Source of the DNA: an uncultured bacterium | GTDB lineage: Bacteria; Poribacteria; WGA-4E; WGA-3G | Assembly (NCBI GenBank): GCA_964523645.1 | Contig: CAZGAW010000004.1 | Span: forward strand, 8,284-72,283 | Length of the DNA stretch: 64,000 nucleotides | Direction: 5' to 3' | Shown: positions 40,013 to 63,785 of the stretch, one piece after another | Layout of the letters: every line of letters starts with the position of its first letter | How positions within the stretch are numbered: position 1 is the stretch's first letter | The notes under the pieces: generated by a model | The model's input: only the letters and a program-made list of their open reading frames with translations | Databases searched by the model: none | What the model was told of the DNA's origin: nothing | Program-made: the position numbers and the translations under genes

Positions 40013-40037
40013 ATAATGTGACCTTCAATATAAAGTA

Positions 40038-40057: not shown

Positions 40058-40108
40058 AATTCTGAAAATACTTCTTTATTTACCAAGAACGCTGTGTAAA
40101 GCCTGGAA

Positions 40109-41593: not shown

Positions 41594-41643
41594 AGCGATT
41601 CCTTTTGATCAAAGCAGGTATGGTGGTTAATTTGGTGTCCACT

Positions 41644-42657: not shown

Positions 42658-42755
42658 GTGAATCTCCACGCTCTAAATGATATAAACGATTATACCCTTT
42701 TTGCCAGTTTGAATCAAGTTTTTGAATGCTATGCGGAGGTGTTCAGTTAGAGCAA

Positions 42756-43160: not shown

Positions 43161-43173
43161 CACCTTTAACTGA

Positions 43174-45255: not shown

Positions 45256-45634
45256 CGGTTTCTGCTCCTTCAGGTTGGTAATTGTTAATCAACGCTTGTA
45301 AGCGGTTGTGTTCATCTACGCCGGTTTGTCGCACTTCAAGGAGTGTGTTTACCAATTTCTCGGCTGAGTTGTCAAAAAGACGTTCCAGCAAATCGCTGAG
45401 CATCCTATGCGTAATCTCCGTCTCTTTGACCAAAGGCTGGTAAACGAACGTTCTGCCATCCACTTGATGCGACAAAACGCCTTTCTTTTCAAGACTCTTC
45501 ATTGTCGTGGCAACGGTGGTGTAAGCCAGTTTTCGATCAATATTGTCAAGAACATCATTGACCGTGGCACGTCCCAATTTCCACACCACTTTCATCACTT
45601 CAAGTTCTAATGGGTGTAATCTCTTGGTTTTCAT
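45248..45634 (-). CDS. BlaI/MecI/CopY family transcriptional repressor
   Basis: AAGGA RBS. The 128-aa winged-helix protein starts LELEVMKVVW...ATVNDVL...YTTVATTMKSLEKKG. Confidence 0.8.
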   Translation of the reverse strand: MKTKRLHPLELEVMKVVWKLGRATVNDVLDNIDRKLAYTTVATTMKSLEKKGVLSHQVDGRTFVYQPLVKETEITHRMLSDLLERLFDNSAEKLVNTLLEVRQTGVDEHNRLQALINNYQPEGAETDD

Positions 45635-45925
45635 CTAGTTGATCCTTAGAATATAATACCATTTCTAATTGAATACCTTTCAATGGGAGATCTGTAGCAC
45701 AAACTGTTAGTTTGTGCCACCTTGTATCCCTTCAGAAAGTCATTAATGCGATATTTATTTTTTGAAATGGTATAAGTTAAAGGTGAATCTGACCTATGCG
45801 CTAAAATGTTGATGCTTATGTTGCAAATTACGAAAGGTAAATACTAAATCTAAATACGTATCAATAGTATTATACACCCTAAAAAAGGGTTGTCAAGTTA
45901 ATTTTTTACAATTTTCGTATTTTTT

Positions 45926-47905: not shown

Positions 47906-47940
47906 ATTTTATTGGTTATCGGTTAACTGACAACCATTCC

Positions 47941-50900: not shown

Positions 50901-52239
50901 GTATTGACGTGACGTATGGTGTCGGCAGCCCGTCTTCTCTGGAGATGATTTCCCAGCTGCGCGTTTGAGGCGAGTAAATCGAAATTCCTGCAACCGTTGC
51001 CAGCCAAAGGTTTCCGTCCGGATCACGTGTTAGATAGCGGACATCGTTATCCGCAAGAAAATCGGCTTGTTTGTAAATTGTCCATTCACCGGTTACCTTA
51101 TCAAAACGACTCACACCATCCTCTTTGCTCGCAAACCAGACATCGTCGCCTTGCGTCGTAATCCAACTCACATGATTACTCGCCAATCCATCTGATTTGG
51201 TGTAATGCACCCACGTATTGACAGGCTTAATAAACCGATGTACCCCCGCATTGGCAGTTCCAAACCAAACTTGGAATCCATCCGCACGGATACAGGAAAT
51301 CATATTGCTTTTCAGTAGATCGGTCTTTGTATACGTTTTGATGAAGGTTTGGTCAACTTGATTGTACTGACTGACACCCTCCTTCTGGGTACCAAACCAA
51401 ACGCTGTCATCGTCCACCGCAATCGTGGCGATCTCACTGTCTATCAAACCATCTGATTTCGTATAGTTGTTCCAAGAATCCGTATCTCGATGATAGCGAC
51501 TTACCCCACCTCTACTGAACCTCGGATCCTCGTCCCATCCATGCGGATCCGGATTTATTTCCCTATCAGTACCGACCCAAACGTATTCTGGTTCAACTGC
51601 GATTGTCGTAATGACTTTACTGACCAAGCCGTCCTTTCGCGTCCGCACCGCCCAACTGTCAATCGTTTTGTCATAACGGTTCAACCCCTCAGATGTTCCA
51701 AACCAGACGTAGTTCCCGTCCACGGCAATGGAGGAAACCTGATCGCTCGCCAAGCCATCAATAGTGCGGAAGGTTGCAAAGGTGCTTGTCTGCATATCGT
51801 AGCGGCTCACACCTTCATCTGTGGCGAACCAAACCCATTGTCCATCCACCGCAACGGCATTCACCATGTCGTTCGCTAACCCATCTTCCATCGTATAGTG
51901 AATCCACCTATCTTGCTGACGGTCCCACCGCGTAACGCCTCTTGCTGTTGCAATCCACACATTGCCTGAATCTGCAGCAATACAATTGACCTCATTGCTG
52001 ACAAGTGTCCGTTTCACGGGCCACGTCTTCTCGGAACGTGAACCTGCATCGGAATTCTCAAACGGAAGGTTGGATTGCTGATCCGTTGTTAAGGGTCCAC
52101 ACCCTATAATCACAAAATAGGAAAGCAATAACAAAGCACACGCAATAAAAGCAGTGCCTGAACATTTAAGGCTGAATTTGATACGCCGAAGGTTATTTTT
52201 ATCTGCTGGGTTCATCATTTTTATCGCCATCCTTTTCAC
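47941..52239 (-). CDS. giant lipoprotein built from ~25 two-component-regulator-propeller (Reg_prop) beta-propeller repeats, with no kinase domain
   Basis: Lipobox VIIGCG. Repeats of the type DGLASN.V..I..DG..VWFGT..G..RYD recur throughout. A Ser/Gln-rich linker and a His-rich patch sit in the middle. The start codon is ambiguous (GTG at 52239 or ATG at 52230/52215). Confidence 0.6.
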   Translation of the reverse strand: MKRMAIKMMNPADKNNLRRIKFSLKCSGTAFIACALLLLSYFVIIGCGPLTTDQQSNLPFENSDAGSRSEKTWPVKRTLVSNEVNCIAADSGNVWIATARGVTRWDRQQDRWIHYTMEDGLANDMVNAVAVDGQWVWFATDEGVSRYDMQTSTFATFRTIDGLASDQVSSIAVDGNYVWFGTSEGLNRYDKTIDSWAVRTRKDGLVSKVITTIAVEPEYVWVGTDREINPDPHGWDEDPRFSRGGVSRYHRDTDSWNNYTKSDGLIDSEIATIAVDDDSVWFGTQKEGVSQYNQVDQTFIKTYTKTDLLKSNMISCIRADGFQVWFGTANAGVHRFIKPVNTWVHYTKSDGLASNHVSWITTQGDDVWFASKEDGVSRFDKVTGEWTIYKQADFLADNDVRYLTRDPDGNLWLATVAGISIYSPQTRSWEIISREDGLPTPYVTSIHISHQPNSSQPSAVSHQQEDSGSSETSLQMETESQKPKAKSRSAQVWIGSDRGLGARAYLGEEWTFHVSPEMQTQGETFVTSIDTGTAPQNHRIWIGTSSGPAMYDTLSSAWTQLSLPGTPKNPLIASALVHDESVWFGGAEGVWRYSIADKQMHSVVDGLPNPYVNVLLSTSENEKQTLWAGTRRGLAKYDNTRQRWIPLSFNDRLPSPNVTALAFRDGILWIGTPLGLGSYTIASDTWNSLSNVPYNVRDILCGVDETLWLATDSGLLEYNSQSARQVLHQSRPVREPFLETRVSNIKFDGDYIWFNSWGASPNGALVRFHRPTETWRRFTRLDILQSTQKRSMTLVRWTYVDTDAVWFTTDYGVLRYDKISDTWQHFTTEDGLSTDDISKIAVSEQSVWVIPMIGLELNHYRKAAGTWEVVEQENIHQIERVNALGVDGPEIWYASGRGLTRYNEITREWKDFGPRDGLAGRGAEWITVDADFIWVARSEWDRDSNRPLSRYDKKTKEWTTFSTNDVLASRTIRRIIATEKDVWILYRPWEDAGVTRYDRRTKEWTTIRSGRGTLELAADDDYLWLAAPNNGLRRFHFASGTWASFRDIKGLLHNHVGEYGLAVDEDYVWVGTLRGLSRYDKRKESWTPLKALPTLVGRTIRTVATDERFVWVGTDKGMSRYDKVFGTWKNYQQEGGSENIETHGGHWHEHRRKKRDCLSDDVVSSIVVDEQYVWVGTRDGANRFDKIALEWDQYKTHHGLPANNVTSVSSDGNNIWVGTNSGIGKYPRTADDLNAWITYTSGTEIQPSAVSKEFAESLVTDQIWCITASKRHVWVGTRRGVSRYDISRDIWKTITVEDGLASDEVSCIAIDGDNVWFGSDLGVTLYNEKTEVWAAYTTEDGLASNKVTTIGVDGTELWIGTYNAGVSRFNRLTNNWTTYTRESGLAHNGILSMAVDSDYVWFGTYRGLSRYDKRTGIWTTFTESYGPEDILR

Positions 52240-52675
52240 CTAAGTGTCCGTCTTGCAACACAAGAACTATATTCACCGTTTGACAATCAATTACGACGCT
52301 TTAGATAGATTTAGACGTAAGTGTTTGAAACGCGTTTACGCACGCTGCAGATTTTTTAACAAAAAGTTACCGCGTATATTACCATAAGACGTTTATTAAT
52401 GATACACCCTTAAATAAAGTTACAATTACACTATCCATGGATAGGAGGGCGACATAGACCAAGAACCCGCTATCTTATATCGGATATTCCAATTTTCGAG
52501 AACTTTATTTGAATCACAAATACAGTGAAACCCAACGAACTAACTATTATCAACATACCCAAGCCGCTAATGGAACCAAAAAGTGTTTGACAAAAATCCG
52601 TTCATACCCTACAGTAGATGCCATAGAAACACAGCACAAACAATCTGAATCGACGACAGAGATGGAGGTATTTCT

Positions 52676-53701
52676 ATGCCTTATGGAGACAATGACTGGC
52701 TCGCTTTAACCGACGAACCGACACTGGAACCGGAACTGCCAATCTGCGACCCACACCACCATTTTTGGGATTTCCGAACCGAGCGGATCCCCTACCAACG
52801 GTATTTACTCCACGAGTTGATCGCAGACATCAACAGTGGACACAATGTACGCTCTACCGTGTTCGTCGAGGCGAGAGCGATGTACCGTGCTGATGGACCG
52901 GAAGAGATGCGTCCTGTGGGTGAAGTCGAGTTCGTGCAAGGGTTAGCCGCTGCGAGTGCGAGTGGTTTATACGGCGAGAGCCGCGCTGCCGCTGCGATTG
53001 TTGGGCATGCGAACTTGAACCTCGGTGAACGCGTTGCGCCGGTCTTGGAAACCTTACAGGCAGCGAGTCCAAATCGGTTTCGCGGTATCCGTCATTCTGT
53101 TACCTGGGATCCGCATCCTGAAATAGAAAGAGCTTCCACTTACAGAAAAGAAGGACAACTGGCGCGTGAGGATTTCCGAGCAGGGGCAAGGGTACTGGCG
53201 GGTATGGAAATGTCTTTTGAGGCTTGGATGTACGCCCCGCAACTCCCTGAACTCGCTGATTTCGCGAGAGCCGTCCCCGATCTCACGATCATTTCAAATC
53301 ATATCGGCGGTTTGCTGCGCGTGGGGCCTTACGGTGGCAGGGACGACGAAGTGCTGGCGAACTGGCGGAGCGGTATCGCTGCAATAGCCGCCTGTCCGAA
53401 TGTCCACATGAAACTCGGAGGCATCGGAATGCCACGCACGGGTTTCGATTGGCATGAACGGGAAAAACCGATCGGTTCTGAAGCGTTAGCAAAATCCATG
53501 GCACCTTTCATGAATTACTGTATCGAGCAGTTCGGTCCGGAGCGGTGCATGTTTGAAAGCAATTTCCCCGTGGATAAAGTCTCGTTCTCCTACAATGTAA
53601 TGTATAACGCCTTCAAACGGTTGTCATCGGGGTATTCGGACAATGAACGTGCTGCGTTATTTCACGACACCGCCGCTCATGTATACCGGATAGATGTTTA
53701 A
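52676..53701 (+). CDS. amidohydrolase-2 family metal-dependent hydrolase (ACMSD/LigI-like TIM barrel)
   Basis: GGAGG RBS. N-terminal ICDPHHHFWD metal-binding motif typical of Amidohydro_2. Confidence 0.7.
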   Translation: MPYGDNDWLALTDEPTLEPELPICDPHHHFWDFRTERIPYQRYLLHELIADINSGHNVRSTVFVEARAMYRADGPEEMRPVGEVEFVQGLAAASASGLYGESRAAAAIVGHANLNLGERVAPVLETLQAASPNRFRGIRHSVTWDPHPEIERASTYRKEGQLAREDFRAGARVLAGMEMSFEAWMYAPQLPELADFARAVPDLTIISNHIGGLLRVGPYGGRDDEVLANWRSGIAAIAACPNVHMKLGGIGMPRTGFDWHEREKPIGSEALAKSMAPFMNYCIEQFGPERCMFESNFPVDKVSFSYNVMYNAFKRLSSGYSDNERAALFHDTAAHVYRIDV

Positions 53702-53749: not shown

Positions 53750-54007
53750 TTAATAGACCTTACTACGGTGCCCGATTTGGTGAACGCTCACCACCCGAAT
53801 GCGCCTGTTAAAGGAATAAACGATTCGGTAATCTTTAGCAACTGTTAAGCTGAATTTACCCCTGAATTTGCCTTTTAGTGCCTTGTGTGGGTAATTATCA
53901 CAATTTTCGCATAACCGTTCCAGTTTTTCAAGGATCCGCGCCCTGACAGTGGGATGAAAACGCTGCATATCCCGTTGTGCCCGCGAGTCTAATGCTAACG
54001 TGTACAC
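53750..54007 (-). CDS. type II toxin-antitoxin system RelE/ParE family toxin
   Basis: 85 aa, with YRIVYSF...RVVSVHQIGHRSKVY typical of RelE/ParE. Its 5' end overlaps the upstream antitoxin gene by 13 nt. Confidence 0.7.
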   Translation of the reverse strand: MYTLALDSRAQRDMQRFHPTVRARILEKLERLCENCDNYPHKALKGKFRGKFSLTVAKDYRIVYSFNRRIRVVSVHQIGHRSKVY

Positions 54008-54720
54008 TTCAACTTCACCCCGAACTCTCTGGCCACCTCTTCAAGTGTAACCATTTCCGCTTCTCCAGCTTCGTGATCGGCTATACGTTTTTCCAACTCT
54101 TCGGCAAACTCTGGGCGGAACTCCAACCCTGCGTCCGGATCGTAGTGGTAGTCCTCAAAGGCGACTTCCAAAAGTTCATAGGCGACGTAAAGTTCTCGAA
54201 ATGCCAGATCCAGCACCTGATCTGTCGGATGCTGCTCAAGCAACGCGACGAGCCGCTCACGCACTGGGAAGAGTTCTTGGGCGACGAGGAAACGAAGCAG
54301 GTTTCGGTATTCATCCGGTGGTAACTCAGCAATTTTCTTCTCTGGCATCGGATCGCTGTTGAGGTAAAGCCCCATTCGTCTGAAGTTACGCTCTTTGAGC
54401 GTTGTTTTCCGGTTGGCGAGGACATATTCGCGTTGCCGTTTTAGTTTTTTCGCGAGCGGCGTGTCCGGTCTGAGTCCTTCAAGCGGGTCTTCCTCGTAGC
54501 TCTCCAACCAAAAAGCGAAATCCACGTAGTCACCGTGAAAATGAAAGAACTCCGCCTCTAATTCCTCTTGCGGACTATCCTTAGCAAGTAGTGCAGCAAG
54601 CCGTTCCCGCGATTTGAAAAGCTCCTCGTTAATAAGGGTATGGAGCAACTCCCGGAATTCAGTAGGATTCATCTCCTTAATATTCGGCATAATGTTCTCC
54701 GTGTGCGTTAGAATTTTCAA
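53995..54720 (-). CDS. elongated antitoxin-like protein (addiction-module-component family C-terminus) with duplicated N-terminal module
   Basis: C-terminus EFAEELEKRIADHEAGEAEMVTLEEVAREFGV resembles TIGR02574-type antitoxins. Two internal repeats are PTEFRELLHTLINEELFKSRERLAALLAKD and PDEYRNLLRFLVAQELFPVRERLVALLEQH. Confidence 0.5.
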   Translation of the reverse strand: MKILTHTENIMPNIKEMNPTEFRELLHTLINEELFKSRERLAALLAKDSPQEELEAEFFHFHGDYVDFAFWLESYEEDPLEGLRPDTPLAKKLKRQREYVLANRKTTLKERNFRRMGLYLNSDPMPEKKIAELPPDEYRNLLRFLVAQELFPVRERLVALLEQHPTDQVLDLAFRELYVAYELLEVAFEDYHYDPDAGLEFRPEFAEELEKRIADHEAGEAEMVTLEEVAREFGVKLKCTR

Positions 54721-55013
54721 TGTTTAGTATACCGCAAAATCCGTTTGATGTCTAATGCATCTTGACTCGGATGCGTAAAGTTTTTGGCTAAGCATTCTGT
54801 TTCTCGGGTAGGAGAGGTTTCTAACCACGATTGCTCTCGGAAACTCTACACGTATGAGACACGCCGTTGACAGGCGGTTGCCCATAATCAGCGATAATCC
54901 GCGTTCAGATAACAAAACATTTATACACCCCTTGACCTCTCAACATACGTTATGCTATAATAACCTTTACAATATAAACGCGAAAATCTGAATATATCCA
55001 GAGAAGAAAGCGT

Positions 55014-56288
55014 ATGAACATACCAAATCCATCCGATCTCGACAAGGTTTTAGAAAAGATCACCGAGATAGCGCAAGAATCCGCCACTGGCGACTACATC
55101 TACCGGGGTGAGCCTGAGTATTACGACAAAGTCTCCTCAAATCTCTATCGCGAGTTCCCTGAATTTGAAGAGATTCGCTTTGATATCGCACGTGTTCAAG
55201 AAAATATTCTGAAAGAGGCGAAAGCGTATATCAGCAAAACAGACGATATTGACGAAACAGATAGCATTGAAATCTTAACCGAGCTCCAACACTTTGGCGG
55301 TAAAACCAACCTGATTGATTTTACGGAAGACTATCTTATTGCGCTATTCTTCGCTTGCGACGGTTCACATAAAAACCCCGGGCGGGTTATCTTGCTGAAA
55401 AGAAAATCAGGGTCAGAGGTCTACAAAGTCAGAAAACCTCGTCGGATAATCAGTCGCGTTGAATCCCAAAAGAGTGTATTCGTTGAATCACCCGAGGGTT
55501 CTGTGAAACCTGACATTGAGGTTACCATTCCAGCAGACCTCAAATTTCCTATGTTAGAGTACCTGCGGAAACACCACAGAATATCTATTGGAACCATCTA
55601 CAACGATCTCCATGGATTTATCAGACGGAGTGCCTACACGGAGTTTTTTAAAGGCATGACTTGTCAACAGGCAGCAAGTGAATCGGAAACTCCTCAGAAA
55701 AAACGCAAGTATTGCGAAAAGGCGATTGAACATTATAGCGAAGCTTTGGAACTGAGACCTGATTTTGCCGAAGTTTATTTCCATCGGGGCAGTGCTTATG
55801 AAGACCAACGAGAAAGCGATTTGGCTGTTGAAGACTATAGCAAGGCGATAGAAATGAATCCCAATTTTGCCTTTGCCTATCGCAATAGAGGTCTGATTTA
55901 TGAGAAAAAAGGTGAGGTCGACCTAGCCATTAAGGATTACAGCAAGGCAATTGAACTCAATTTAGATTCTTCCCTTGACTATTCCCATCGCGGCCGTGCT
56001 TACAAGAAAAAAGGCGAGACTAATCTAGCCATAGAAGACTATAGAAAGGCAATAGACCTGAACCCATATAACGTCAGCAATTACCACGACCTCGTCATAA
56101 TTTGGCTACATCAGGGAGATTGGGAAAATATCGAATCATACCTAACTATTGCCCAAAATAACGGGTTAAACATCATCAATCTTTTTTCTCAATATTACCC
56201 AACCATTATAGACCTTAAAAAAGAAATCGCGGTTGAAGTTCCGGAAGACCTCGCTGCAAAACTATATCCAGTGAATCCACAATCCTAA
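55014..56288 (+). CDS. FRG-domain protein with C-terminal TPR repeats
   Basis: The N-terminal ~200 aa match the FRG-domain pattern (IYRGEPEYY...ELQHFGGKTNLIDFTEDYLIALFFAC). The C-terminal half carries 4-5 TPRs (AYRNRGLIYEKKGEVDLAIKDYSKAIELN). Confidence 0.5.
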   Translation: MNIPNPSDLDKVLEKITEIAQESATGDYIYRGEPEYYDKVSSNLYREFPEFEEIRFDIARVQENILKEAKAYISKTDDIDETDSIEILTELQHFGGKTNLIDFTEDYLIALFFACDGSHKNPGRVILLKRKSGSEVYKVRKPRRIISRVESQKSVFVESPEGSVKPDIEVTIPADLKFPMLEYLRKHHRISIGTIYNDLHGFIRRSAYTEFFKGMTCQQAASESETPQKKRKYCEKAIEHYSEALELRPDFAEVYFHRGSAYEDQRESDLAVEDYSKAIEMNPNFAFAYRNRGLIYEKKGEVDLAIKDYSKAIELNLDSSLDYSHRGRAYKKKGETNLAIEDYRKAIDLNPYNVSNYHDLVIIWLHQGDWENIESYLTIAQNNGLNIINLFSQYYPTIIDLKKEIAVEVPEDLAAKLYPVNPQS

Positions 56289-56303
56289 AAGGACAATCCA
56301 AGC

Positions 56304-59174
56304 ATGCCTAACCAAGATTACACCAAATGGCATTTGCCCAAAGGTGCCAAGGCGCGCCTTGGAAAAGGCTATATCAACGAGATAGCGTATTCTCCAGACA
56401 GCAGTCGTCTGGCGGTGGCGAGTTCCATCGGAATTTGGATCTACGATGCGGACACCTGTGAAGAATTTGCTTTGTTCACAGGACATACAGATAATGTTGA
56501 AAGTCTTACCTATTCTCCGGATGGCAAAATAATCGCTACCGGAGGCAGGAACGTTTGTTTGTGGGACGCTGCCACAGGTGAACATAAAGCCACGCTGCCG
56601 GGACATGTTGATAGGGTTGACAGTGTTGTGTATAGTCCGGATGGCAAAACAATCGCTGCCAAGATGGGACGTTCCACTTCCATCACAAGAAGTTTTGATT
56701 ACTCAGTGTATTTGTGGGACGTTACCACCGGAAAATACAAAACTACGCTCACAAGACCTCTCCACAGGATCTATAGTCTGGCGTATAGTCCAGATGGTAA
56801 AACAATCGCCACCGGTACTTACCAAGAGTTGCATTTATGGGACGCTGTTACTGGTGAACACGAAACTACACTCACAGGACATACCGGTAGCGTTGAAAGC
56901 ATTGCGTATAGTCCGGATGGCAAAATAATCGCCACCAGCAGCGGGATTTTTGGTGGAGATGTATATTTATGGGATGCTACCACCGGAAAACATAAAACTA
57001 CGCTTACGGAACGTGGCGATAGTGTTGAGTATAGTCCAGATGGTAAAACAATCGCTATTGCCAGTCTGTTCACAATAAGTTTATGGGATGCTATTACTGC
57101 GGAACACAGAGGCACATTCACAAGTCCTACTGATAGTATTAAAAGTGTTGCGTATAGCCCCGATGGAAAAACAATCGCTATGGGAACTTATGAGGAGGTG
57201 AACTTATGGGATGCTGATACCGGGAAACACAAAACCACACTTACAGATCATGCCAAAAGTGTCAAGAATGTTGTGTATAGTCCGGGTGGAAAAGTAATCG
57301 CCACCGATTGCTATGATCTGAATTTGTCCGAGAGAGTACATTTATGGGATGTTATTACAAGGAAACACAAGACCACGCAGAATAAAGTTGCGTATAGTCC
57401 GGATGGAAAAACAATTGCTACCTCGGGTTTTGAAAAAGGAAGAAATCGAAAGGTGTGCTTATGGGATACTATCACTTGGGAACACAAAACCATGCTTACA
57501 GAACACGCCGACAGAATCTCAAGTATTGTATATAGTCCAGATGGAAAAACAATCACTATCCGGAGTGAGGATCTAGAGGATGACCTTTTCTTGGGGGCTC
57601 ATCCTATAGAACATAAAGTGCGTTTGTGGGATACTACCACTGGTGAATACATAGCCACGCTTAGCGAGTATACCAATGACATCGAGGATTTTATGTATAG
57701 TCCGGATGGAAAAACAATCGCTATCTGGAGTTGGACAAAAGAAAAAAATCAAGAGGTGCGTTTGTGGAATGCCGTTACCGGGCAACAAATAGCTACGCTT
57801 ACAAGGTATACTGATCGCGTAGAAGAGGTTGCGTATAGTCCAGATAGCAAAACGATTGCTACCAGGAGCAATGAAGAGGTGTGTTTGTGGGATACCATCA
57901 CAGGGAAACACAAAGCTACACTCGGAGGACACACCGATAGTATTAATAACTTTGTACATAGTCCGGATGGAAAAACAATCGCCACTTGGAGTCATGAAAA
58001 GGTGTGCTTGTGGAATGCGGTCACCGGGGAACATATGTGGGATATCACTACAGAGGAATATGACTTCAGATTTACCGGAGAAGAGGGCCTTGCATATAGC
58101 CCAAATGGTTGTGTGATCGTCACTTGGGGCTATGGAAAGGTATGTTTATGGGATACCATCACAGGGAAACAAATAGTCACACTTACGGAACATATCAATA
58201 TTTGGGATACCATTGAGAATGTCGCTTATAGTCCAGATAGTCATACTATCGCCATCAGCTGCCATAGTGGGTCCCGTGGATCCTATGACAGTAAGGTCCA
58301 TTTGTGGGATACTACTATATGGAAACACAAAGCTACGCTTATAGGAAGTAGTTGTGCGTATAGTCCAAATGGAAAAACAATCACCACCAGTAGTGATAAG
58401 GGGGTGCATTTGTGGGATGCTACCACTGGAAATCACAAAATCACATTTATCGGGCATATCGGCGATGTCTACAGTTTTGCATATAGTCCGGATGGAAAAA
58501 CAATCGTCACTGGTGGGAACGAAGACAGCACAGTTCTCCTATGGGAAACTGAATCTTTTCTTCATCAGGGGCCGAATATCAATCCGTGCGAAATTCACGG
58601 AAATTGGCGAGCAGGTTGGGCTTTGGATGTTCATACATTATCAAGTCGCCCTTTGCCGGGTGGAGGATACGATACAGAACGAACCGAATTTGGCGAATTG
58701 GTTTTTCAGTTGAAATATCGTCATGATAGGAGTAAGATTCAACCTATCGCAGAGATTGCCGCCAAATTCGTTAAAGAAAAATTTGCCGTTGATGGATACC
58801 CCATTCTTCCATATCTGAAGGCGATTCTTCCGATTCCGCCCTCAGACACAAATAGGGCTTTCCAACCTGTTACCGAAGTCGTACGGGAAATAGGTAAACT
58901 CCTGAATGTACCAGTCCGAACGGACTATCTAATGAAGGTAAAACGGACGGAACTTCTCAAGAATCTGCCAGACGTAGAAAACAAACGTGAACAACTCCAT
59001 GGAGCATTTGCTGTCCAATCCCAAGATTTGAAGAACCGCTGTGTCTTGTTAGTTGACGACCTCTATGACTCAGGGACAACTTTGACAGAAGCCACCAAAG
59101 TTCTCTATGAACAAGGCGGTGTACAACACGTGCTTATTCTAACGTTAACCCGCACTCGGACAGGCAGAGATTGA
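56304..59174 (+). CDS. WD40-repeat array (~18 repeats) fused to C-terminal ComF/GntX-type phosphoribosyltransferase domain
   Basis: AAAGGA RBS. Repeats of the form GH...V.SVAYSPDGKTIAT...V.LWD..TG.HK.TL run across aa 30-750. The C-terminal ~170 aa align with ComFC (LKYRHDRSKIQPIAEIAA, ILPIPPS, KNLPDVENKREQLHGAF, VLLVDDLYDSGTTLTEATKVL). Confidence 0.7.
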   Translation: MPNQDYTKWHLPKGAKARLGKGYINEIAYSPDSSRLAVASSIGIWIYDADTCEEFALFTGHTDNVESLTYSPDGKIIATGGRNVCLWDAATGEHKATLPGHVDRVDSVVYSPDGKTIAAKMGRSTSITRSFDYSVYLWDVTTGKYKTTLTRPLHRIYSLAYSPDGKTIATGTYQELHLWDAVTGEHETTLTGHTGSVESIAYSPDGKIIATSSGIFGGDVYLWDATTGKHKTTLTERGDSVEYSPDGKTIAIASLFTISLWDAITAEHRGTFTSPTDSIKSVAYSPDGKTIAMGTYEEVNLWDADTGKHKTTLTDHAKSVKNVVYSPGGKVIATDCYDLNLSERVHLWDVITRKHKTTQNKVAYSPDGKTIATSGFEKGRNRKVCLWDTITWEHKTMLTEHADRISSIVYSPDGKTITIRSEDLEDDLFLGAHPIEHKVRLWDTTTGEYIATLSEYTNDIEDFMYSPDGKTIAIWSWTKEKNQEVRLWNAVTGQQIATLTRYTDRVEEVAYSPDSKTIATRSNEEVCLWDTITGKHKATLGGHTDSINNFVHSPDGKTIATWSHEKVCLWNAVTGEHMWDITTEEYDFRFTGEEGLAYSPNGCVIVTWGYGKVCLWDTITGKQIVTLTEHINIWDTIENVAYSPDSHTIAISCHSGSRGSYDSKVHLWDTTIWKHKATLIGSSCAYSPNGKTITTSSDKGVHLWDATTGNHKITFIGHIGDVYSFAYSPDGKTIVTGGNEDSTVLLWETESFLHQGPNINPCEIHGNWRAGWALDVHTLSSRPLPGGGYDTERTEFGELVFQLKYRHDRSKIQPIAEIAAKFVKEKFAVDGYPILPYLKAILPIPPSDTNRAFQPVTEVVREIGKLLNVPVRTDYLMKVKRTELLKNLPDVENKREQLHGAFAVQSQDLKNRCVLLVDDLYDSGTTLTEATKVLYEQGGVQHVLILTLTRTRTGRD
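56400..58550 (+). repeat. near-identical ~120-130-bp coding tandem repeats (WD40 units)
   Basis: The string gcgtatagtccggatgg(c/a)aaaacaatcgc recurs more than 15 times inside the gene. Confidence 0.6.
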
Positions 59175-59223
59175 AATTGGGAATTTTGGAGCTATCAATG
59201 CCCACTCAAACAAGGAAGAAAAG

Positions 59224-60207
59224 ATGAGAATTAACAGAGACTATTTCTGGTTCCGGCTCTTTAAAACGCGAGGTATAGGGCCCAAGCTGCTGATTTCCAT
59301 TGCCGAGATACTTGAAATGGAAAATCTTGATCCTGAAATGGTACCACGTAGCCAAAGTGATCTCTCAGCACAATTTCCAGAATTAGCCAAAATCCTCAAT
59401 GGCAAAATTCGTACAGAGGATAGGGAAAAGGTGTCTGAAGCATATAGCGAGCTCAAAAGACATGGAGTTGATATTATCTATCCAAGGCATCCCGATTTTC
59501 CGTCACAACTCCTTGAAATTTCGCCGATGCTATTTGTTAAAGGTCAACAGAAACGTCTTATATCAGATAGCGTTGCAATTGTTGGCGCGCGGAACGTTTC
59601 AGATAAAGGGATCCGCATTGCACGAAAACTTGCAGGTGATCTTGCAAGCGAAGGCATAAATGTCGTCTCTGGATACGCTAAAGGGGTTGACTCAGAAGCA
59701 CACTTAGGTGCATTAGCGGCAGAAGGCACAACAACACTTGTGCTTCCGTACGGCATCAAGCAGCTGCGTCAGAAAAAAGCGTTTAAGGAATTTAATTGGG
59801 ATCGGGATGTGCTTGCGGTTTCACAATTCGACCCAGATGCGAAATGGTTAGCACGCAACGCAATGGCACGGAATAAACTTGTATGCGGTCTTTCTAAAGC
59901 AGTTGTCGTTATTGAGTCAGGACCTGAGCGGGACGCACGAGGTAAAATGAGTGGAACCTTTAATGCCGCAAAAACGGCTCTTGACATGAACTTACCGCTT
60001 TTTGTTCTCAATCCAAACTGCCTTGACAATCCACAGGAAGGTAATACTGCCCTGATTGCCTTGGGCGGTCATAGTCTTGATCCAGCTGATGGTGCAAACG
60101 AGATTGTAGACCATATCTCTGTTAAAACCACGGCGTCTGTTCTAACTGCAAATCAGAATTCCCCTGAACAATTGTCCCTTCGTTTTGAGGATTCCATGGA
60201 CTCCTGA
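59224..60207 (+). CDS. dprA: DprA/Smf family (SLOG Rossmann) DNA-processing protein
   Basis: AAGGAAG RBS. N-terminal HhH-like WFRLFKTRGIGPKLL and DprA core GVDIIYPRHPDFPSQLL...VAIVGARNVSDKGIRIARKLAGDLASEGINVVSGYAKGVDSEAHLGAL. Confidence 0.7.
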   Translation: MRINRDYFWFRLFKTRGIGPKLLISIAEILEMENLDPEMVPRSQSDLSAQFPELAKILNGKIRTEDREKVSEAYSELKRHGVDIIYPRHPDFPSQLLEISPMLFVKGQQKRLISDSVAIVGARNVSDKGIRIARKLAGDLASEGINVVSGYAKGVDSEAHLGALAAEGTTTLVLPYGIKQLRQKKAFKEFNWDRDVLAVSQFDPDAKWLARNAMARNKLVCGLSKAVVVIESGPERDARGKMSGTFNAAKTALDMNLPLFVLNPNCLDNPQEGNTALIALGGHSLDPADGANEIVDHISVKTTASVLTANQNSPEQLSLRFEDSMDS

Positions 60208-60260: not shown

Positions 60261-60282
60261 GGCGAGGTTCCAAACCTCGCCA
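60261..60282. terminator. hairpin GGCGAGGTT-ccaa-AACCTCGCC between the convergent dprA-like and glycoside-hydrolase genes
   Basis: Member of the GGCGAGGTT hairpin family. It has no clear U-tract on either side, so it may be REP-like rather than a terminator. Confidence 0.3.
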
Positions 60283-60307
60283 GCAATCGTATAGCGTGTA
60301 ATCCTCA

Positions 60308-62713
60308 CTATTGAATCAGTTTGAACTTATGCGCTGCCTCTTCTGCGCCGATGAATCGGCTGTAGATCGCCACACGGCTCAACTTACCTTCCCAATTCCG
60401 ACCACCACTCGCCTCATCGCCGAAAAGCAACGGATAAAGTTCCCAATTGCTGAAATCCCCTTGCGTGCCGTTGCTGACGTGGGCAAGTTCACCATCAATG
60501 TAGCAGTAGACGTTACCATCAAAATAACTGACGATAACATGCGCCGGCTTCCCGGGCTCAATCTTACCGAAAGATAACTCGCTGCCCGTGGCATTCGTTC
60601 CAGTTCGCGGCGTGCGGATCCTCACGATAAAACGGTTACCATCTTGTCCCAAAGTAAAGTTGCGATGGGTAGCGTCGTTTGAGAATGAGATAATTCGTAC
60701 GGGACCGCTCTGGTCAAGGTTATCCGTCGTAACGAGGCACGCAAGCGTTAATTGGTTGCTCGCCTGACACGCGGCGAGAAGGGTTTCATTCACATCCTTA
60801 GTAAGAAACGCCCCGCCGGTCAGATCCATCTGTCCATCTTCACCGATTGTCGCATCGCCGCGAGATTCAATCGCCCCCCTATTTTCAAGCGTGCTATGCC
60901 AGAGAAAAACGAGTCCGTCGCGTGAGCCGGGAAATTCTGTATGCGTCCCGATGTCAGCGGGTGTCTCCGGTGATACACGGATTGCAAGGGAGGTCGTTGC
61001 TGTGTCCCCCTCCGGATCCATCACTGTGAGCGTTGCAACGTATTGACCGAGACTTTCATAGATATGCGTCGGGTTCGATTCAGTGGATGTTGCGCCGTCT
61101 CCAAAACTCCAGTGGTACGACAAGTCACCTGCTGCTGAGAAATTCACTGTGAGTGGAGCACTCCCCTCAAGCACATCGGCAGAAGCTCTCGCCTCCGGAC
61201 GGAGTTTCTCATCTGGGGCATACGGCGTAAAGCGATAGGCAGAACCGCTATGTGATGAAGCAAATGTATATTCCCCAGGTTGTGCCGTGCCAACTGGGAT
61301 GATCTTCATGTTCCACGTATCCACGCGATCGACTTTATAAGGCTGCTCTCCGCGTAAGTCCAGTGTTATCGTTTGCGGTTCCGTTGTGTAAGCAAGATAG
61401 TATTCTCCGTGTTTCGCGAGGATATACCGTCCCCTGTCATCGCCAATCGGCTCAAGCGTATCAAAGGCTGGCGCGCTGGTTTCCATGAAGTCTTTGAGAA
61501 ATGCAATCCGAAGCGGACTCTCACCGCGTAACACACCACCTTTTGCCCACCAAAGAAGGTCTTCGCGGTGTTTGTAGGTCTCTCCGTGTCCGACATAGCA
61601 CCCAGAGACTGTCCCTGCCCAAAAGCGTTGGACCATCTCTTCCGCTGTGATATTTCCCCATCCTTGCGGAACATCGCCTTCGTAGCGACACTCATCATAG
61701 ATAACAGGCTTTCCGTATTGCGTGCGATAGCGGATGCCCTGCGCCATATTGGAGGTTTGGATACTGGTGTGTGTTACCCACGGTTTACTGTGGTCGTACC
61801 AACGCCTGCAGTTGTGAATCCCACGTAACCGCTGATATGGGTCATGATCGCGGATAATCTGGAAGAACCGATCCCAATCCGATTCCACTTTCGCAGGCAT
61901 GATGTCAAATTCATTTGCAAGGGACCACCAGACGTTTCGGAACGCCGCCAGTCGGGCAACGGCGTAACGGATGTATCGGTCATCGCTCTCGGCATCCATA
62001 TTCTCAAAATCCCATCGATCGTAGGTATGAAACAGGATAATGTCTGCCTCGATACCGAGATCCAATAGGTTTTGAACATGCTGCTCAAAGTGCTGCCAGA
62101 ATTCGGGATCGAATCTTGTGAAGTCCCAATCCTTTAGCGGTTTCCCTTCAAACGGGTAGTAGACGGGTTCATTTTTGTTGTAAGCGTAGTCCTTTGGAAA
62201 AATGCACATCCGCATCTTATTGAAAGGTGCCTCGGTGAGGGTTTCGAGCGTCTGTTTCTCCATCGCTTCCCCTTGATGTGCCCAGGCGTAACAGGTCGTT
62301 CCGAATTGATGGTAGGGTGTGCCATCAGCGTACTGCAAGTAAAAGTCTTTATAGACGCGCACAGGTCCGTGATTCTCTTTAGACGGTTCGACACATGTAA
62401 ATCGCCCGGTCTTACCGTCGAGTTCGGCGCGGTTGCTTTTCGTCGTGTACGTCCATCCGCCGACTGCGTCGGGCATGAACCGGATTTTGTAAACGCCGTT
62501 CCCGTCATAGAATCCATGTGGTTCAAAAGTCCGATCGTTCTGCGAAAATTCCGCTGTTAGTTCCACTTCAGTGAACGGATTTCCTGTATCTGGTCCATTT
62601 AAAGTTACTTCAAATATTCCCCAACGTTCAATCATATTCATCTCCGATTTTTGTGCGTTGGCAAGCGAAACTGCGATTGCACAAATCGCTATTGGCAAAA
62701 TGTACCTTATCAC
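60308..62713 (-). CDS. secreted glycoside-hydrolase-like protein (DUF5060 beta-sandwich plus DUF4038/GH140-like TIM barrel) with PKD and LamG/concanavalin-like C-terminal domains
   Basis: The likely GTG start at 62713 gives the signal peptide MIRYILPIAICAIAVSLANAQ. The N-terminus FEVTLNGPDTGNPF...GFYDGNGVYKIRFMP is followed by a TIM-barrel-like core, a PKD motif (WSFGDGATSTESNPTHIYESLGQYVATLTV) and a C-terminal lectin-like domain. Confidence 0.5.
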   Translation of the reverse strand: MIRYILPIAICAIAVSLANAQKSEMNMIERWGIFEVTLNGPDTGNPFTEVELTAEFSQNDRTFEPHGFYDGNGVYKIRFMPDAVGGWTYTTKSNRAELDGKTGRFTCVEPSKENHGPVRVYKDFYLQYADGTPYHQFGTTCYAWAHQGEAMEKQTLETLTEAPFNKMRMCIFPKDYAYNKNEPVYYPFEGKPLKDWDFTRFDPEFWQHFEQHVQNLLDLGIEADIILFHTYDRWDFENMDAESDDRYIRYAVARLAAFRNVWWSLANEFDIMPAKVESDWDRFFQIIRDHDPYQRLRGIHNCRRWYDHSKPWVTHTSIQTSNMAQGIRYRTQYGKPVIYDECRYEGDVPQGWGNITAEEMVQRFWAGTVSGCYVGHGETYKHREDLLWWAKGGVLRGESPLRIAFLKDFMETSAPAFDTLEPIGDDRGRYILAKHGEYYLAYTTEPQTITLDLRGEQPYKVDRVDTWNMKIIPVGTAQPGEYTFASSHSGSAYRFTPYAPDEKLRPEARASADVLEGSAPLTVNFSAAGDLSYHWSFGDGATSTESNPTHIYESLGQYVATLTVMDPEGDTATTSLAIRVSPETPADIGTHTEFPGSRDGLVFLWHSTLENRGAIESRGDATIGEDGQMDLTGGAFLTKDVNETLLAACQASNQLTLACLVTTDNLDQSGPVRIISFSNDATHRNFTLGQDGNRFIVRIRTPRTGTNATGSELSFGKIEPGKPAHVIVSYFDGNVYCYIDGELAHVSNGTQGDFSNWELYPLLFGDEASGGRNWEGKLSRVAIYSRFIGAEEAAHKFKLIQ

Positions 62714-62738
62714 TAAAACTCTCGCTAAATGCCCTGGG

Positions 62739-63785
62739 TCATTCCGTTGGGGGCTTATGTTTTTCTCTCCACTGCGGGTACTCATTTGTGAGGAGTTTGG
62801 CGGCCCAGCCACCGTAGTAGTCGTATCCGCCGCGGCGTTCCTGTCCGATCTCGGATAACGCGTAGCGGACCACCGAATCACGGTCAAGAAAGATGGGACG
62901 GTTGCTGCTGATCTCGTAGAAACGCCCCCAGAGCGGTCCCGCGTCCGGATCCGGTACGATCCGCTTATCATCTTGCCCCTCTGCATCGGTGAACTCGTCA
63001 AAACGCATCCCGTGGATAGCGACCTCCCTGAACCACCCAACAGCTCCTTCGACAGCGGCGATGATCTCTGGCGTAGGTTCTTTGACTGACATCAGGAAAC
63101 GGACGACACCGACACTTTCGGCACCTGAGATGGATGGCGGCTCATAGGAGCGCGCCCACGCAGGCGCAAGCGTTTTCTCGTCATGCTGTGCACACCAAGC
63201 AGTGAGTTTATCGCCCTGTTTGATCTGCGTGCGCAAGATACAGTCGATGCCCTTGGTTACAGCATCTTTCGCCTGAGTGCGGTACGCCGTTTCCAAGAAC
63301 TCATAGTCTGAGGATTCAGAAACATCTCGGAGAAGTTCGAGAATGCGGACCATAACATTGTCATTGAACGTGATGCGGCGATGGTAGCGTTTGCTTAGCG
63401 GATAATACTGCGGCCATCCGCCAGTCGGGTATTGCGCTTCAAAGATATGGGAAAGACCTTTGAGAAATGCTTGTTGGTAGCGCGACTCGTTTGTCGCACG
63501 AAACGCACGAGCCAGAAACCGTAGTTCGCCGATGGTGGCACTGTTGTCGAACGTCCCGCGCAGATCGTCCATTTTACCATCAAACGGCTCAGATGCCGTG
63601 TCTCGACCTTTGGGCCAATTGCCGTGCGGTGTCTGCCAGGTGAGAACATTGTCGGCAATCCGGCGACCTTCCTCGCTCTGAAACCATTCGGTGGATTGCT
63701 TCGCGTATCGGGAAGGTACGGTTGCATTGGAAGATGACAGAAACAAAAGGCATAAAATACAGGTGACAGTGAGTTGTAACTTCAT
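62739..63785 (-). CDS. secreted hypothetical protein, possible polysaccharide (pectate, PL10-like) lyase
   Basis: Signal peptide MKLQLTVTCILCLLFLSSSNA. The motif WQTPHGNWPKG is reminiscent of PelA/Pel-15E-family lyases. The assignment is weak. Confidence 0.3.
   Translation of the reverse strand: MKLQLTVTCILCLLFLSSSNATVPSRYAKQSTEWFQSEEGRRIADNVLTWQTPHGNWPKGRDTASEPFDGKMDDLRGTFDNSATIGELRFLARAFRATNESRYQQAFLKGLSHIFEAQYPTGGWPQYYPLSKRYHRRITFNDNVMVRILELLRDVSESSDYEFLETAYRTQAKDAVTKGIDCILRTQIKQGDKLTAWCAQHDEKTLAPAWARSYEPPSISGAESVGVVRFLMSVKEPTPEIIAAVEGAVGWFREVAIHGMRFDEFTDAEGQDDKRIVPDPDAGPLWGRFYEISSNRPIFLDRDSVVRYALSEIGQERRGGYDYYGGWAAKLLTNEYPQWREKHKPPTE

Follow-up and report, generated by a model that had tools for sequence, protein, structure and literature searches.

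The window analyzed here, a 64-kb stretch of DNA from a poribacterial genome, carries three co-directional open reading frames (ORFs) on the plus strand, at positions 55014-56288 (g1), 56304-59174 (g2), and 59224-60207 (g3). The coordinates and strand given in an earlier note on this DNA were exact; the gaps, which it put at 16 and 50 bp, measured 15 nt between g1 and g2 (56289-56303) and 49 nt between g2 and g3 (59175-59223). AAGGA-type ribosome-binding sites precede g2 and g3, and a terminator scan of the g1-g2 gap found none. The length of the ORFs, their highly significant domain matches, and the presence of conserved orthologues elsewhere indicated that the three genes are not chance features. 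A candidate sigma-70-like promoter is located upstream of g1 on the plus strand at 54932-54961 (TTGACC, an 18-nt spacer, and TATAAT, with TG before the second hexamer). This site has 11 of 12 consensus matches and is the top site between 54600 and 60500, a consensus match from a scan in which the total of promoter-like sites was not above that of shuffled sequence. Between g3 and a convergent apiosidase-like gene, a GC-rich hairpin read from the sequence at 60262-60283 (GGCGAGGTT-CCAA-ACCTCGCC; no strand assigned) is a weak candidate for a terminator, having no T-tract and not being called by the terminator scan.

The g1 product (424 amino acids [aa]) consists of an FRG domain (approximately 55014-55628), TPRs (approximately 55665-56129), and a conserved C-terminal tail (56130-56285; ...VEVPEDLAAKL...). 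The FRG-plus-TPR assignment of the earlier note was upheld by profile search: residues 27 to 120 matched Pfam FRG PF08867 (E 4.4e-15; 56.8 bits against a cut-off of 25), and residues 218 to 372, approximately, matched several TPR families with E values down to 4.5e-33. An ART-type fold was supported for the FRG domain, and the literature places FRG within the ART superfamily and predicts it to be an NADase or effector (PMC9503650). The N-terminal 200 aa also matched 14 PDC-S15 models of PADLOC (best E 2.8e-18). PDC-S15, itself a PADLOC candidate only, is likewise an FRG-domain protein, whereas g1 has a TPR array, the conserved C-terminal tail, and an operon shared with a toxin-antitoxin-like pair.

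In the 956-aa product of g2, Pfam detected WD40 and beta-propeller families with E values down to 3.8e-94, and residues 1 to 750 gave only such matches and no helicase family. The array itself, described previously as about 18 WD40 repeats, was confirmed, with a count of 17 by the YSPDG...LWD motif. The same WD40-phosphoribosyltransferase (PRTase) fusion, with its conserved N-terminus and linker, was found in seven independent assemblies, and unfused relatives keep a linker remnant (LLWEVPS...) at their N-terminus; an assembly or annotation artefact such as a lost stop codon was rejected on these grounds. The unusual repeat-fused PRTase of the earlier note is thus confirmed, and the fusion is confined to Poribacteria. 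Members of this PRTase family have modular N-termini: no domain, WD40, MORN plus S1, or an unrecognized region.

The linker and C-terminal part of g2 (58539-59174) constitute a ComF-like/PsyrT-like PRTase. When the C-terminal 209 aa were scanned alone, Pfam Pribosyltran was matched with 26.9 bits (E 3.4e-6), just over the cut-off of 26.3. The PRPP-binding motif, reported as intact, is present as the loop VLLVDDLYDSGTT (g2 residues 914-926; window positions 59043-59081), and D918/D919, the residues flanking this pair, and the other motifs of the region, INPxEIxGNWRAGxALDxHTxSS from 58578 and GELVFQLKY at 58692-58718, were invariant in 24 homologues. The helix around the second of these motifs ("GE.V.Q.KY...") presumably resembles a ComF-type helix. 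A four-Cys zinc finger is absent on reading of the sequence, residues 748 to 800 having only one Cys and lacking CxxC pairs, and its place ahead of the PRTase core is taken by the first motif. The domain had been called ComFC/GntX type; its NCBIfam scores were far under the cut-offs for both ComF (TIGR00201, 34.1 bits against 233.55) and GntX (NF008616, 35 bits against 304). Among PADLOC models, PsyrT PDLC03928 was matched by full-length g2 (E 7.4e-17) and by the C-terminal 209 aa (E 2.9e-18) at model positions 538 to 687 of 689, a coverage of approximately 22% that comprises the PRTase part only, and homologues from four phyla matched it as well; the values for ShosT were E 5.4e-7 for full-length g2 and E 3e-8 for the PRTase region alone. 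The structural model of the PRTase, in which the N-terminal 54 residues are unreliable, has a type I PRTase fold. Foldseek aligned it to ShosT (8zvc; 9% identity) and to Helicobacter pylori ComF (7p0h) with a TM score of 0.50 in both cases, so the structure search cannot tell ComF from ShosT, and a PRTase alignment profile searched against PDB sequences gave generic PRPP-loop matches only, with E values of at least 0.017.

The g3 product (327 aa) comprises an N-terminal helical region (59224-59451), a Rossmann DprA domain (59452-60075), and a nonglobular acidic tail of approximately 43 aa (60076-60204). Residues 77 to 281 matched Pfam DNA_processg_A PF02481 (E 5.4e-41), with an additional weak match to SLOG cluster4, and the DprA motifs are retained; Pfam found no winged-helix domain. 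The DprA/Smf SLOG-Rossmann call for g3 is thereby sustained, and the FRG, PRTase, and DprA assignments of the earlier note all survived the profile searches. On TIGR00732, g3 reached 126.4 bits against a cut-off of 191.15, and PRTase-linked DprA-like proteins from four phyla reached 120 to 139 bits. The PADLOC PsyrA model scored g3 at 160.6 bits (E 1.5e-47), those relatives at 152 to 174 bits, and a canonical DprA control at 100.9 bits, which indicates that this model sets the family apart from canonical DprA. The control was taken from locus L083, in which a canonical dprA gene (372 aa; TIGR00732, 240 bits) lies directly beside a PRTase/DprA-like pair. The PADLOC ShosA model PDLC03961 behaved differently, with 129 bits for g3 against 238 bits for canonical DprA; because this model ranks canonical DprA above genuine PRTase-linked DprA-like proteins, g3 among them, the match was dropped as evidence of membership, and PDLC03961 matches alone should not be taken as ShosTA. 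In phmmer searches, g3 was nearer Streptococcus pneumoniae DprA (64 bits) than the Escherichia coli ShosA structure (41 bits).

Upstream of g1, the minus strand encodes a ParE_toxin protein (53750-54007; Pfam, E 2.8e-8) and a 231-aa partner with an antitoxin-like match below threshold. For the "RelE/antitoxin pair" noted at this place, the name RelE holds at the superfamily level only. The "defense-island flavor" attributed to the locus is weak in the window, where one ParE pair lies amid carbohydrate-degrading genes, but is borne out at the corresponding site of related genomes, which contains type ISP restriction-modification genes, TnpB, an IS5-like transposase, insertion sequences, a ParE pair, and extra FRG-TPR genes.

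In comparisons with orthologues, no part of the locus varied as much as the WD40 array. The first 55 aa of g2, which include the first WD40 blade (56304-56468), were 82 to 87% identical to those of five other full-length WD40-PRTase proteins, and the PRTase was 76 to 89% identical among orthologues; the hypervariable array (56469-58538, the 17 repeats being counted with the first blade) was 31 to 44% identical. In L007, a near-identical strain, identity to the window was 98.6 to 100% in the downstream genes, 98.4% in g3, 87.5% in the PRTase, and 64% in the last blades, and the segment 56263-56469 was 86% identical at the DNA level; g1 and the remaining WD40 array were not alignable, the array giving no alignment with L007 DNA. 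Between the two strains, g1 and the array are replaced together. Tandem Repeats Finder detected no DNA-level tandem repeats in the array, whose variability therefore does not stem from recent near-identical repeat expansion. A diversity-generating retroelement was considered as another possible source; the loci examined carried no reverse-transcriptase annotation.

The PRTase gene was followed by a SLOG-superfamily partner in 82 of 82 loci from many phyla, an obligate pairing in which 71 partners were DprA-like and 11 were YpsA-like, the latter being minimal SLOGs without DprA's extra domains; the two genes often overlap by 4 bp. In look-ups, the exact g2 and g3 sequences matched no contig; P0003, which represents the 90% cluster, and its member P0006 did yield loci. 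In total, 442 matches were obtained among 185,579 species genomes, in a patchy, cross-phylum distribution that includes archaea. Within Poribacteria, the pair was present in at least 45 species and in clade-wise conserved synteny with housekeeping genes (moaB-like, folK, fabF, argG, and gltB-like), a pattern more suggestive of stable vertical descent than of a mobile defense gene.

Two earlier bodies of work bear on such a pairing: PsyrTA was reportedly described by Sberro in 2013 as a RecQ-like helicase-PRTase toxin with a DprA-like antitoxin, and PRTase-SLOG dyads and Frg/ART effectors are said to figure in the "nucleotide-centric conflict systems" predicted by Burroughs et al. in 2015. The combination of a PRTase with a DprA-like protein is an experimentally established toxin-antitoxin/anti-phage class, represented by ShosTA and PsyrTA/RqlHI (PMC11961720, PMC12961424, PMC4670107, 10.1101/2022.05.11.491447), and the PRTase/DprA-like core is therefore not novel. 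Its characterized members are described as pairing a genotoxic toxin that depends on PRPP with an antitoxin of the repair type. Toxicity of ShosT (D331/D332; PMC11961720) and of RqlH (D663; PMC4670107) requires the acidic residues that correspond to D918/D919. The locus shares with PsyrTA/RqlHI a C-terminal PRTase with an acidic PRPP loop and a DprA-like gene directly downstream on the same strand, and PsyrT and PsyrA are the top PADLOC models for g2 and g3. It differs in that the N-terminus of PsyrT is a RecQ helicase and that of g2 a 17-blade WD40 array (most relatives of the g2 PRTase having no N-terminal domain), in that RqlI has a C-terminal HTH region that g3 lacks, and in the FRG-TPR gene added upstream. 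With ShosTA (PMC11961720, PMC12961424, PMC9122126) it has in common the two-gene arrangement with the toxin first and the type I PRTase fold. The architecture of g3 (N-terminal helices, a Rossmann DprA domain, and a tail instead of a winged helix) fits that of a ShosA-type antitoxin, whose C-terminal tail is disordered, but the ShosA model favors canonical DprA and the ShosA structures score below S. pneumoniae DprA. Sequence similarity to ShosTA is weak, and the N-terminal pyrophosphatase-like hydrolase of ShosT is replaced by WD40 in g2. What is new is the Poribacteria-specific WD40 fusion in place of the RecQ helicase or hydrolase domain, together with the ART-fold FRG-TPR gene upstream; no description of the FRG-TPR/WD40-PRTase/DprA-like trio or of its hypervariability was found in the literature searched.

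The best explanation, at a probability of about 0.6, is that g2 and g3 would together be a module of the PsyrTA(RqlHI)/ShosTA class, with a PRTase toxin and a DprA-like antitoxin, and that g1 would be an accessory gene. This class, rather than competence, is indicated by the SLOG pairing in every locus, the sub-cut-off ComF and DprA scores, the PsyrT and PsyrA models scoring best, the missing zinc finger, and the separate dprA of L083. The earlier note had proposed a conflict system or a DNA-handling module; the PsyrT/PsyrA matches, the sub-cut-off ComF/DprA scores, and the occurrence of the cassette in many phyla favor the former, and the established PRTase/DprA-like class had been missed. 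The domain identities, the PRTase-SLOG pairing, the separation from ComFC and DprA, the hypervariability, and the FRG-TPR association are direct results; toxicity, antitoxin action, a sensing role, and an anti-phage function are what we infer for the g1-g3 system, by analogy with its characterized relatives. The C-terminal PRTase of g2 would bind PRPP via the acidic loop at D918/D919 and, if unchecked, would disturb nucleotide and DNA metabolism, so that the infected cell would be arrested or killed. g3 would counter g2, probably by ssDNA/RecA-linked repair or by contact with the toxin, and infection might shift the balance, either through titration of g3 by phage ssDNA or through a shutoff of g3 synthesis. 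The WD40 array could bind proteins and gate the PRTase as a sensor or regulator, and g1 could be either a second NAD-using effector or sensor acting with the g2-g3 pair or a co-resident single-gene defense. That the three genes constitute one tripartite immune system, with exchanged TPR and WD40 sensors of phage proteins, FRG (NAD+) and PRTase (PRPP) effectors, and g3 as antidote or sensor, is rather unlikely; if it were true, the locus would represent a repeat-sensor-gated PRTase effector without a STAND NTPase and the first functional link between FRG and PRTase/SLOG.

It is possible, if doubtful, that only g2 and g3 cooperate and that g1 is an independent, PDC-S15-like single-gene defense or NADase-type module sharing a variable hotspot. 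The FRG-TPR family is very large and expanded (1343 matches), and its genes adjoin unrelated defense genes at other sites: the nearest homologues of the g1 FRG domain (61 to 72% identity) lie beside GmrSD, HNH-methylase, and NotI genes, upstream of a type ISP restriction-modification gene, or, in L088, beside a TnpB-like gene with no recognizable defense genes. Moreover, five related loci have, in the place of g1, FRG-TPR proteins to which it is only approximately 30% identical, a non-orthologous replacement; L010 has a WD40-PRTase without an FRG-TPR gene; and L052 tolerates an insertion sequence between the two genes, its ORF at 4819-5499 being an IS5-type transposase by sequence reading only. 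Against separateness, a co-directional FRG-TPR gene was immediately upstream in 5 of 6 fused loci versus 1 of 61 unfused loci, counts drawn from loci that are not phylogenetically independent. The 15-nt gap without a terminator and the joint replacement of g1 and the array also argue for a connection, as does the occupation of one slot by two different FRG subfamilies, which suggests selection for "an FRG-TPR here." A nucleotide-signaling role, in which the PRTase, perhaps with FRG acting on NAD+, would make a PRPP- or ADP-ribose-derived molecule on infection and g3 would bind or process that molecule instead of serving as a repair antitoxin, is distinctly unlikely. The strict pairing, including its minimal YpsA-like branch, and the presence of an ART-superfamily FRG with TPRs resemble the predicted PRTase-SLOG dyads (PMC6459960, PMC9503650), the YpsA-PRTase gene pair having been noted in the literature (PMC6459960), and the physiological substrate of ShosT is still to be found (PMC11961720). 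However, those conflict systems are computational predictions whose mechanism is not defined. A signal molecule has yet to be found, and the locus offers no separate effector gene on which one could act. In the characterized relatives, antitoxin function requires binding to ssDNA and interaction with RecA (PMC12961424), and the toxin alone is genotoxic (PMC4670107).

A housekeeping function in DNA uptake or recombination, with a ComFC-like protein and DprA handling ssDNA in Poribacteria and the WD40 and TPR proteins as scaffolds, is very unlikely. ComFC and DprA are both competence proteins (ComFC, PMC9005727), with which g2 and g3 share the ComF-like PRTase fold and the Rossmann domain with its conserved motifs; g3 is nearer pneumococcal DprA than ShosA, the window contains no second DprA or PRTase gene within its 64 kb, and many Poribacteria have the pair, in housekeeping synteny that differs by clade. 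Nevertheless, both proteins fall far under the equivalog cut-offs, the PRTase lacks the zinc finger and g3 the winged helix, the pair is patchy and coexists with a canonical dprA in L083, and 11 loci have a non-DprA SLOG partner. No competence genes were among the 25 commonest Pfam families of 149 ORFs neighboring the pair in 34 nonporibacterial loci. In addition, four IMG/VR contigs, taken as prophages, carry the pair next to an integrase-like gene (read from the sequence), several genomes have a broken-up PRTase ORF with an intact DprA-like gene, and a hypervariable fused array is unexpected for a housekeeping enzyme. Symbiont-host recognition by the variable WD40 and TPR repeats, with the enzymatic domains modifying host molecules, is extremely improbable. 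Eukaryote-like repeat proteins abound in sponge symbionts, of which WD40 and TPR expansions are typical, and sulfatase, fucosidase, and pectate-lyase genes are abundant in the poribacterial genome behind the window; yet neither a signal peptide nor a secretion-associated gene was seen in the locus on reading of its sequence, and the repeats are fused to an intracellular PRTase/DprA-like core that is shared with free-living bacteria, archaea, and prophages.

If g2 and g3 are a toxin-antitoxin module of the PsyrTA/ShosTA class, the locus joins a group in which ShosTA and PsyrTA have been experimentally validated and the trigger and the toxin substrate remain questions of the field. This family shows the PRTase-SLOG core to be a portable cassette with a swappable N-terminal partner, which may be a RecQ helicase, a hydrolase, MORN, WD40, or nothing at all; in Poribacteria the hypervariable WD40 array was attached to it along with an exchangeable ART-fold/TPR gene. 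Should the repeats act as sensors, alleles that are fused, unfused, or cassette-swapped in otherwise near-identical backgrounds could reveal how PRTase toxins are gated. The locus also offers a testable partner for the unstudied FRG domain. The PRTase/DprA-like pair itself is a stable, clade-wide feature of this uncultivated sponge-symbiont phylum.

The three-gene finding itself is real. The coordinates and shared direction claimed for it in an earlier note match exactly, all three ORFs lying on the + strand: g1 (55014-56288, 424 aa) encodes an FRG and TPR protein, g2 (56304-59174, 956 aa) a WD40 array with a C-terminal phosphoribosyltransferase (PRTase), and g3 (59224-60207, 327 aa) a DprA-like protein of the SLOG superfamily. 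The spacing is tight, as claimed, with gaps of 15 nt (g1-g2) and 49 nt (g2-g3) rather than 16 and 50 bp. AAGGA-type ribosome-binding sites precede g2 and g3, the region's best promoter-like site (TTGACC, 18-nt spacer, TATAAT, with TG; 54932-54961) lies just upstream of g1, and a terminator scan found no terminator-like sites between the three genes; together with the small gaps, these features make it plausible that g1-g2-g3 form an operon. Profile searches confirmed FRG (PF08867, E 4.4e-15) and TPR families (E down to 4.5e-33) in g1, WD40 propeller families in g2 (E down to 3.8e-94), and, for the predicted DprA/Smf protein g3, DNA_processg_A (E 5.4e-41). The PRTase of g2 was detected only when the C-terminal 209 aa were scanned by themselves (Pribosyltran, E 3.4e-6), and the WD40 array, put at about 18 repeats in the earlier note, has 17 when counted by the motif YSPDG...LWD.

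Both core genes are distinct from competence genes. The g2 PRTase fell short of the cut-offs for ComF (34 bits, against 233.55) and GntX (35 bits, against 304), and an INPxEIxGNWRAGxALDxHTxSS module with a single Cys occupies the place of the ComFC four-cysteine zinc finger, so that the repeat-fused PRTase is, as had been proposed, not a housekeeping ComFC architecture. g3 scored 126 bits on the dprA equivalog TIGR00732 (cut-off 191), has no winged-helix domain, and ends in a 43-aa acidic tail; PRTase-linked DprA-like proteins from four phyla scored 120-139 bits throughout. In the Chlorobiota locus L083, a 372-aa gene directly upstream of the PRTase-SLOG pair scored 240 bits and is thus a canonical DprA co-existing with the pair. 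Second DprA-like copies, tandem or nearby, occur in L001 (6637-7554) and in L036-L040 and L045 (about 10000-11400); they belong to the same PRTase-linked subfamily, with its ESGPE[RK]D..GKMSGTF insertion, and, at 120-128 bits on TIGR00732 for L001 and L038, are not canonical DprA. No second DprA or PRTase gene was found within the 64-kb window.

PADLOC matched g2 to the toxin models PsyrT (E 7e-17) and ShosT (E 5e-7), and g3 to the antitoxin models PsyrA (E 1.5e-47) and ShosA (E 6e-38). As a control, the canonical DprA of L083 (6832-7947) scored 238 bits on the ShosA model PDLC03961, compared with 129 for g3 and 126-144 for genuine PRTase-linked DprA-like proteins; since canonical DprA outscores g3, this model is not diagnostic and, used by itself, does not tell ShosA apart from a housekeeping DprA. 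On the PsyrA model, canonical DprA reached 101 bits versus 152-174 bits for the PRTase-linked proteins, which sets that family closer to PsyrA than canonical DprA stands and at a greater distance from DprA proper. Compared with solved structures by plain sequence, g3 matched S. pneumoniae DprA better, at 64 bits, than ShosA, at 41 bits. The g2 PRTase was modelled with a type I PRTase fold (pLDDT 70; the core is well predicted, the first 54 residues are not), to which H. pylori ComF and ShosT matched equally, both at TM 0.50.

ShosTA and PsyrTA/RqlHI are toxin-antitoxin pairs giving phage protection (10.1101/2022.05.11.491447; PMC9122126). Their toxic part is the PRTase, which requires an acidic PRPP loop (ShosT D331/D332, PMC11961720; RqlH D663, PMC4670107); the DprA-like antitoxin has to bind ssDNA, dimerise, and contact RecA (PMC12961424). 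Among the triggers is host shut-off, and phage ssDNA may be another (PMC11961720, PMC12961424). The PRPP-binding motif of g2 is intact, as the earlier note had it: the loop VLLVDDLYDSGTT (D918/D919) is invariant in 24 homologues. Because both components are homologous and the gene order is the same, g2-g3 are placed, on sequence grounds, in the PsyrTA/ShosTA class. They are not strict members of either named family, since g2 lacks both the N-terminal RecQ helicase that defines the PsyrTA/RqlHI toxin and the N-terminal pyrophosphatase-like hydrolase that defines that of ShosTA. The core adds a member to a class already known and validated by experiment; what sets the locus apart as a variant is the fusion to WD40 repeats, a linked FRG-TPR gene that is exchangeable, and retention across the phylum. 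A literature search found no description of the FRG-TPR/WD40-PRTase/DprA-like architecture.

The PRTase family is mostly stand-alone, with members of about 195-205 aa; the cluster of g2 at 90% identity is represented by such a protein (P0003, 206 aa), and other members carry MORN+S1 or unrecognised N-terminal domains. A word-indexed search gave 239 matches, an exhaustive search 325 clusters (50% identity) at E at most 1e-30, and a scan of 185,579 genomes, one per species, 442 relatives. The best 80 of these 442 include about 45 poribacterial species, along with Bacteroidota, Zixibacteria, Chloroflexota, Cyanobacteria, Verrucomicrobiota, Acidobacteria, Planctomycetes, Patescibacteria, and an Archaeoglobaceae archaeon. 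A SLOG-superfamily gene directly followed the PRTase gene in all 82 loci analysed (82/82): a DprA-like gene in 71, often with a 4-bp overlap, and in 11 a YpsA-like gene of 180-270 aa, assigned to YpsA/SLOG by its GDANGADK sequence motif only, with no NCBIfam or PADLOC match. A YpsA-PRTase pairing has been noted earlier (PMC6459960). Outside Poribacteria the flanks are heterogeneous, with 149 neighbouring ORFs matching 213 Pfam families; none of the most frequent families is a competence family, and a handful of methylases, PemK toxins, and STAND-like ATPases appear among them. Four IMG/VR viral contigs (L090-L093) have a P4-type integrase-like gene of 377-403 aa, identified by eye from its sequence, and after it, close to the end of the contig, a PRTase of 194 aa and a YpsA-like SLOG gene of 186 aa (for example, L090 1459-3836), which suggests that the cassette is carried by a prophage or integrative element.

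Relatives of g1, g2, and g3 came overwhelmingly from MAGs of Candidatus Poribacteria, which are sponge symbionts. In these genomes the pair is found at several positions, each specific to a clade and bordered by housekeeping genes (moaB-like, folK, fabF, XPB-type helicase, argG, and gltB-like, named from translated sequences rather than profile searches); these flanks argue for long vertical retention of the pair, which a mobile defence gene does not usually show. Immediately upstream of the pair is a slot that varies between genomes, holding a type ISP restriction-modification gene, a ParE pair, TnpB, insertion sequences, or FRG-TPR. In L021, L040, L051, and L070, the PRTase ORF is broken into two or three pieces or truncated (about 7900-8600) and the DprA-like ORF is intact, a pattern that is expected of toxin decay but could also be an indel artefact in long-read MAGs. 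Both ORFs are broken in L046 and L080.

WD40-PRTase fusions were found in the genome scan in poribacterial assemblies only, namely the window, L007, L009, L010, L017 (truncated), L018, and L052; the cluster representatives P0126, P0127, and P0128 are likewise fusions. The fused PRTases fall within one poribacterial clade, interleaved with unfused ones, several of which retain part of the last-blade linker at their start (MFLWEVPNSF..., MLLREIPSY..., MWEIPS...), suggesting that the fusion was ancestral to that clade and lost repeatedly. The array is hypervariable: in the five other full-length fusions, identity to g2 was 82-87% over the first 55 aa, 31-44% over the WD40 array, and 76-89% over the PRTase. 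The metagenome contig L007, from a near-identical strain, is 96.6% identical to the window across 5.6 kb. At the DNA level, the downstream genes are 98.6-100% identical, g3 98.4%, the PRTase 87.5%, the last WD40 blades 64%, and the g1/g2 junction with the first blade 86%, and neither whole g1 nor the rest of the array aligned. A gradient this steep indicates that recombination replaced a cassette made up of g1, the WD40 array, and part of the PRTase; recognition modules of conflict systems typically show such a pattern. The WD40 repeats are not near-identical at the DNA level. In L018 (3902-11977), a TnpB-like gene (365 aa) comes after the FRG-TPR and WD40-PRTase genes, and beyond it stands another PRTase, divergent and stand-alone, paired with a DprA-like gene; with two PRTases and one DprA-like gene, the locus may be caught midway through a cassette exchange.

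An FRG-TPR gene lay directly upstream of the PRTase in 5/6 fused loci with enough upstream sequence versus 1/61 unfused loci (Fisher's exact p = 3.7e-6, the loci not being phylogenetically independent); L089 is an additional unfused locus with this arrangement. The g1 protein is about 30% identical to the FRG-TPR proteins of other loci, which are 51-76% identical among themselves, indicating that the slot is filled by two FRG subfamilies. Common to the two is a conserved tail of about 50 aa behind the TPRs (W..A..D[LF]..[AS]...G.[DN]I...F...Y..I..[FI]E.E..V[EK][LV]P[EK]DI[AS]A[ML]L), found at the C-terminus of g1 (window 56130-56285), in L007 (1800-1985), and at the FRG-TPR C-termini of L009, L015, L018, and L052; in L001 (900-1071) it is also present on a TPR protein that lacks FRG and adjoins a type ISP restriction gene. 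The tail may be a docking module. In L089 (ENA ERZ23491428 scaffold_3, 4040-13053), the syntenic position is taken up by a poribacterial defence island, which runs N6-methylase/Eco57I, FRG-TPR (350 aa), split type ISP restriction-modification gene, second FRG-TPR (446 aa), unfused PRTase (209 aa), and DprA-like, so that two different defence modules are each preceded by an FRG-TPR gene.

We put the probability at roughly 0.6 that g2-g3 are a PRPP-dependent PRTase toxin and a DprA-like antitoxin forming an abortive-infection-type module. The g2 PRTase would be the toxin and g3 would neutralise it; the WD40 array would bind a protein ligand and thereby gate or target the toxin, and the pair would act in phage defence. 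g1 could be a cooperating NAD-using ART-fold effector or sensor, or a co-resident single-gene defence. Full independence of g1 from g2-g3, compatible with a toxin-antitoxin core, is a tentative alternative. The FRG(-TPR) family is large (1343 matches), the nearest relatives of the g1 FRG domain have GmrSD, HNH-methylase, and NotI genes as neighbours or precede a type ISP restriction-modification gene, L010 has a WD40-PRTase without FRG-TPR, and in L052 an IS5-like transposase separates the two genes; these observations argue against a dedicated g1-g2 partnership, and the enrichment of FRG-TPR at fused loci speaks for one.

Of the other readings, a nucleotide-signal system, which the PRTase and SLOG pairing might suggest, is rather unlikely. 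Housekeeping ssDNA handling would suit the long retention among housekeeping genes; set beside the sub-cut-off ComF and TIGR00732 scores and the separate DprA in L083, it is improbable. Least credible of all are repeat proteins for host interaction, to which the sponge-symbiont origin and the repeat arrays could point.

In L052, the transposase between the two genes (4819-5499) is an IS5-type DDE transposase ORF, identified by reading the sequence only. Upstream of g1, the toxin of the supposed RelE/antitoxin pair is present but belongs to the ParE family (53750-54007, - strand; Pfam ParE_toxin, E 2.8e-8), and its 231-aa partner (53995-54690, - strand), which overlaps the toxin gene and lies upstream of it, matches antitoxin families poorly: it has a sub-threshold C-terminal 'Unstab_antitox' match and a length unusual for an antitoxin. 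The ParE pair (clusters c47/c29) is at the equivalent position in L014 and L016, and L052 keeps the antitoxin-like gene alone. The flanks (38684-53701 and 60308-63785) consist mostly of carbohydrate-degradation genes, encoding a sulfatase, a GFO/IDH oxidoreductase, a zinc ADH, an alpha-L-fucosidase, an apiosidase-like/PKD/LamG protein, and a pectate lyase, and also encode a 1432-aa Reg_prop beta-propeller protein; this neighbourhood is consistent with a sponge-symbiont lifestyle.
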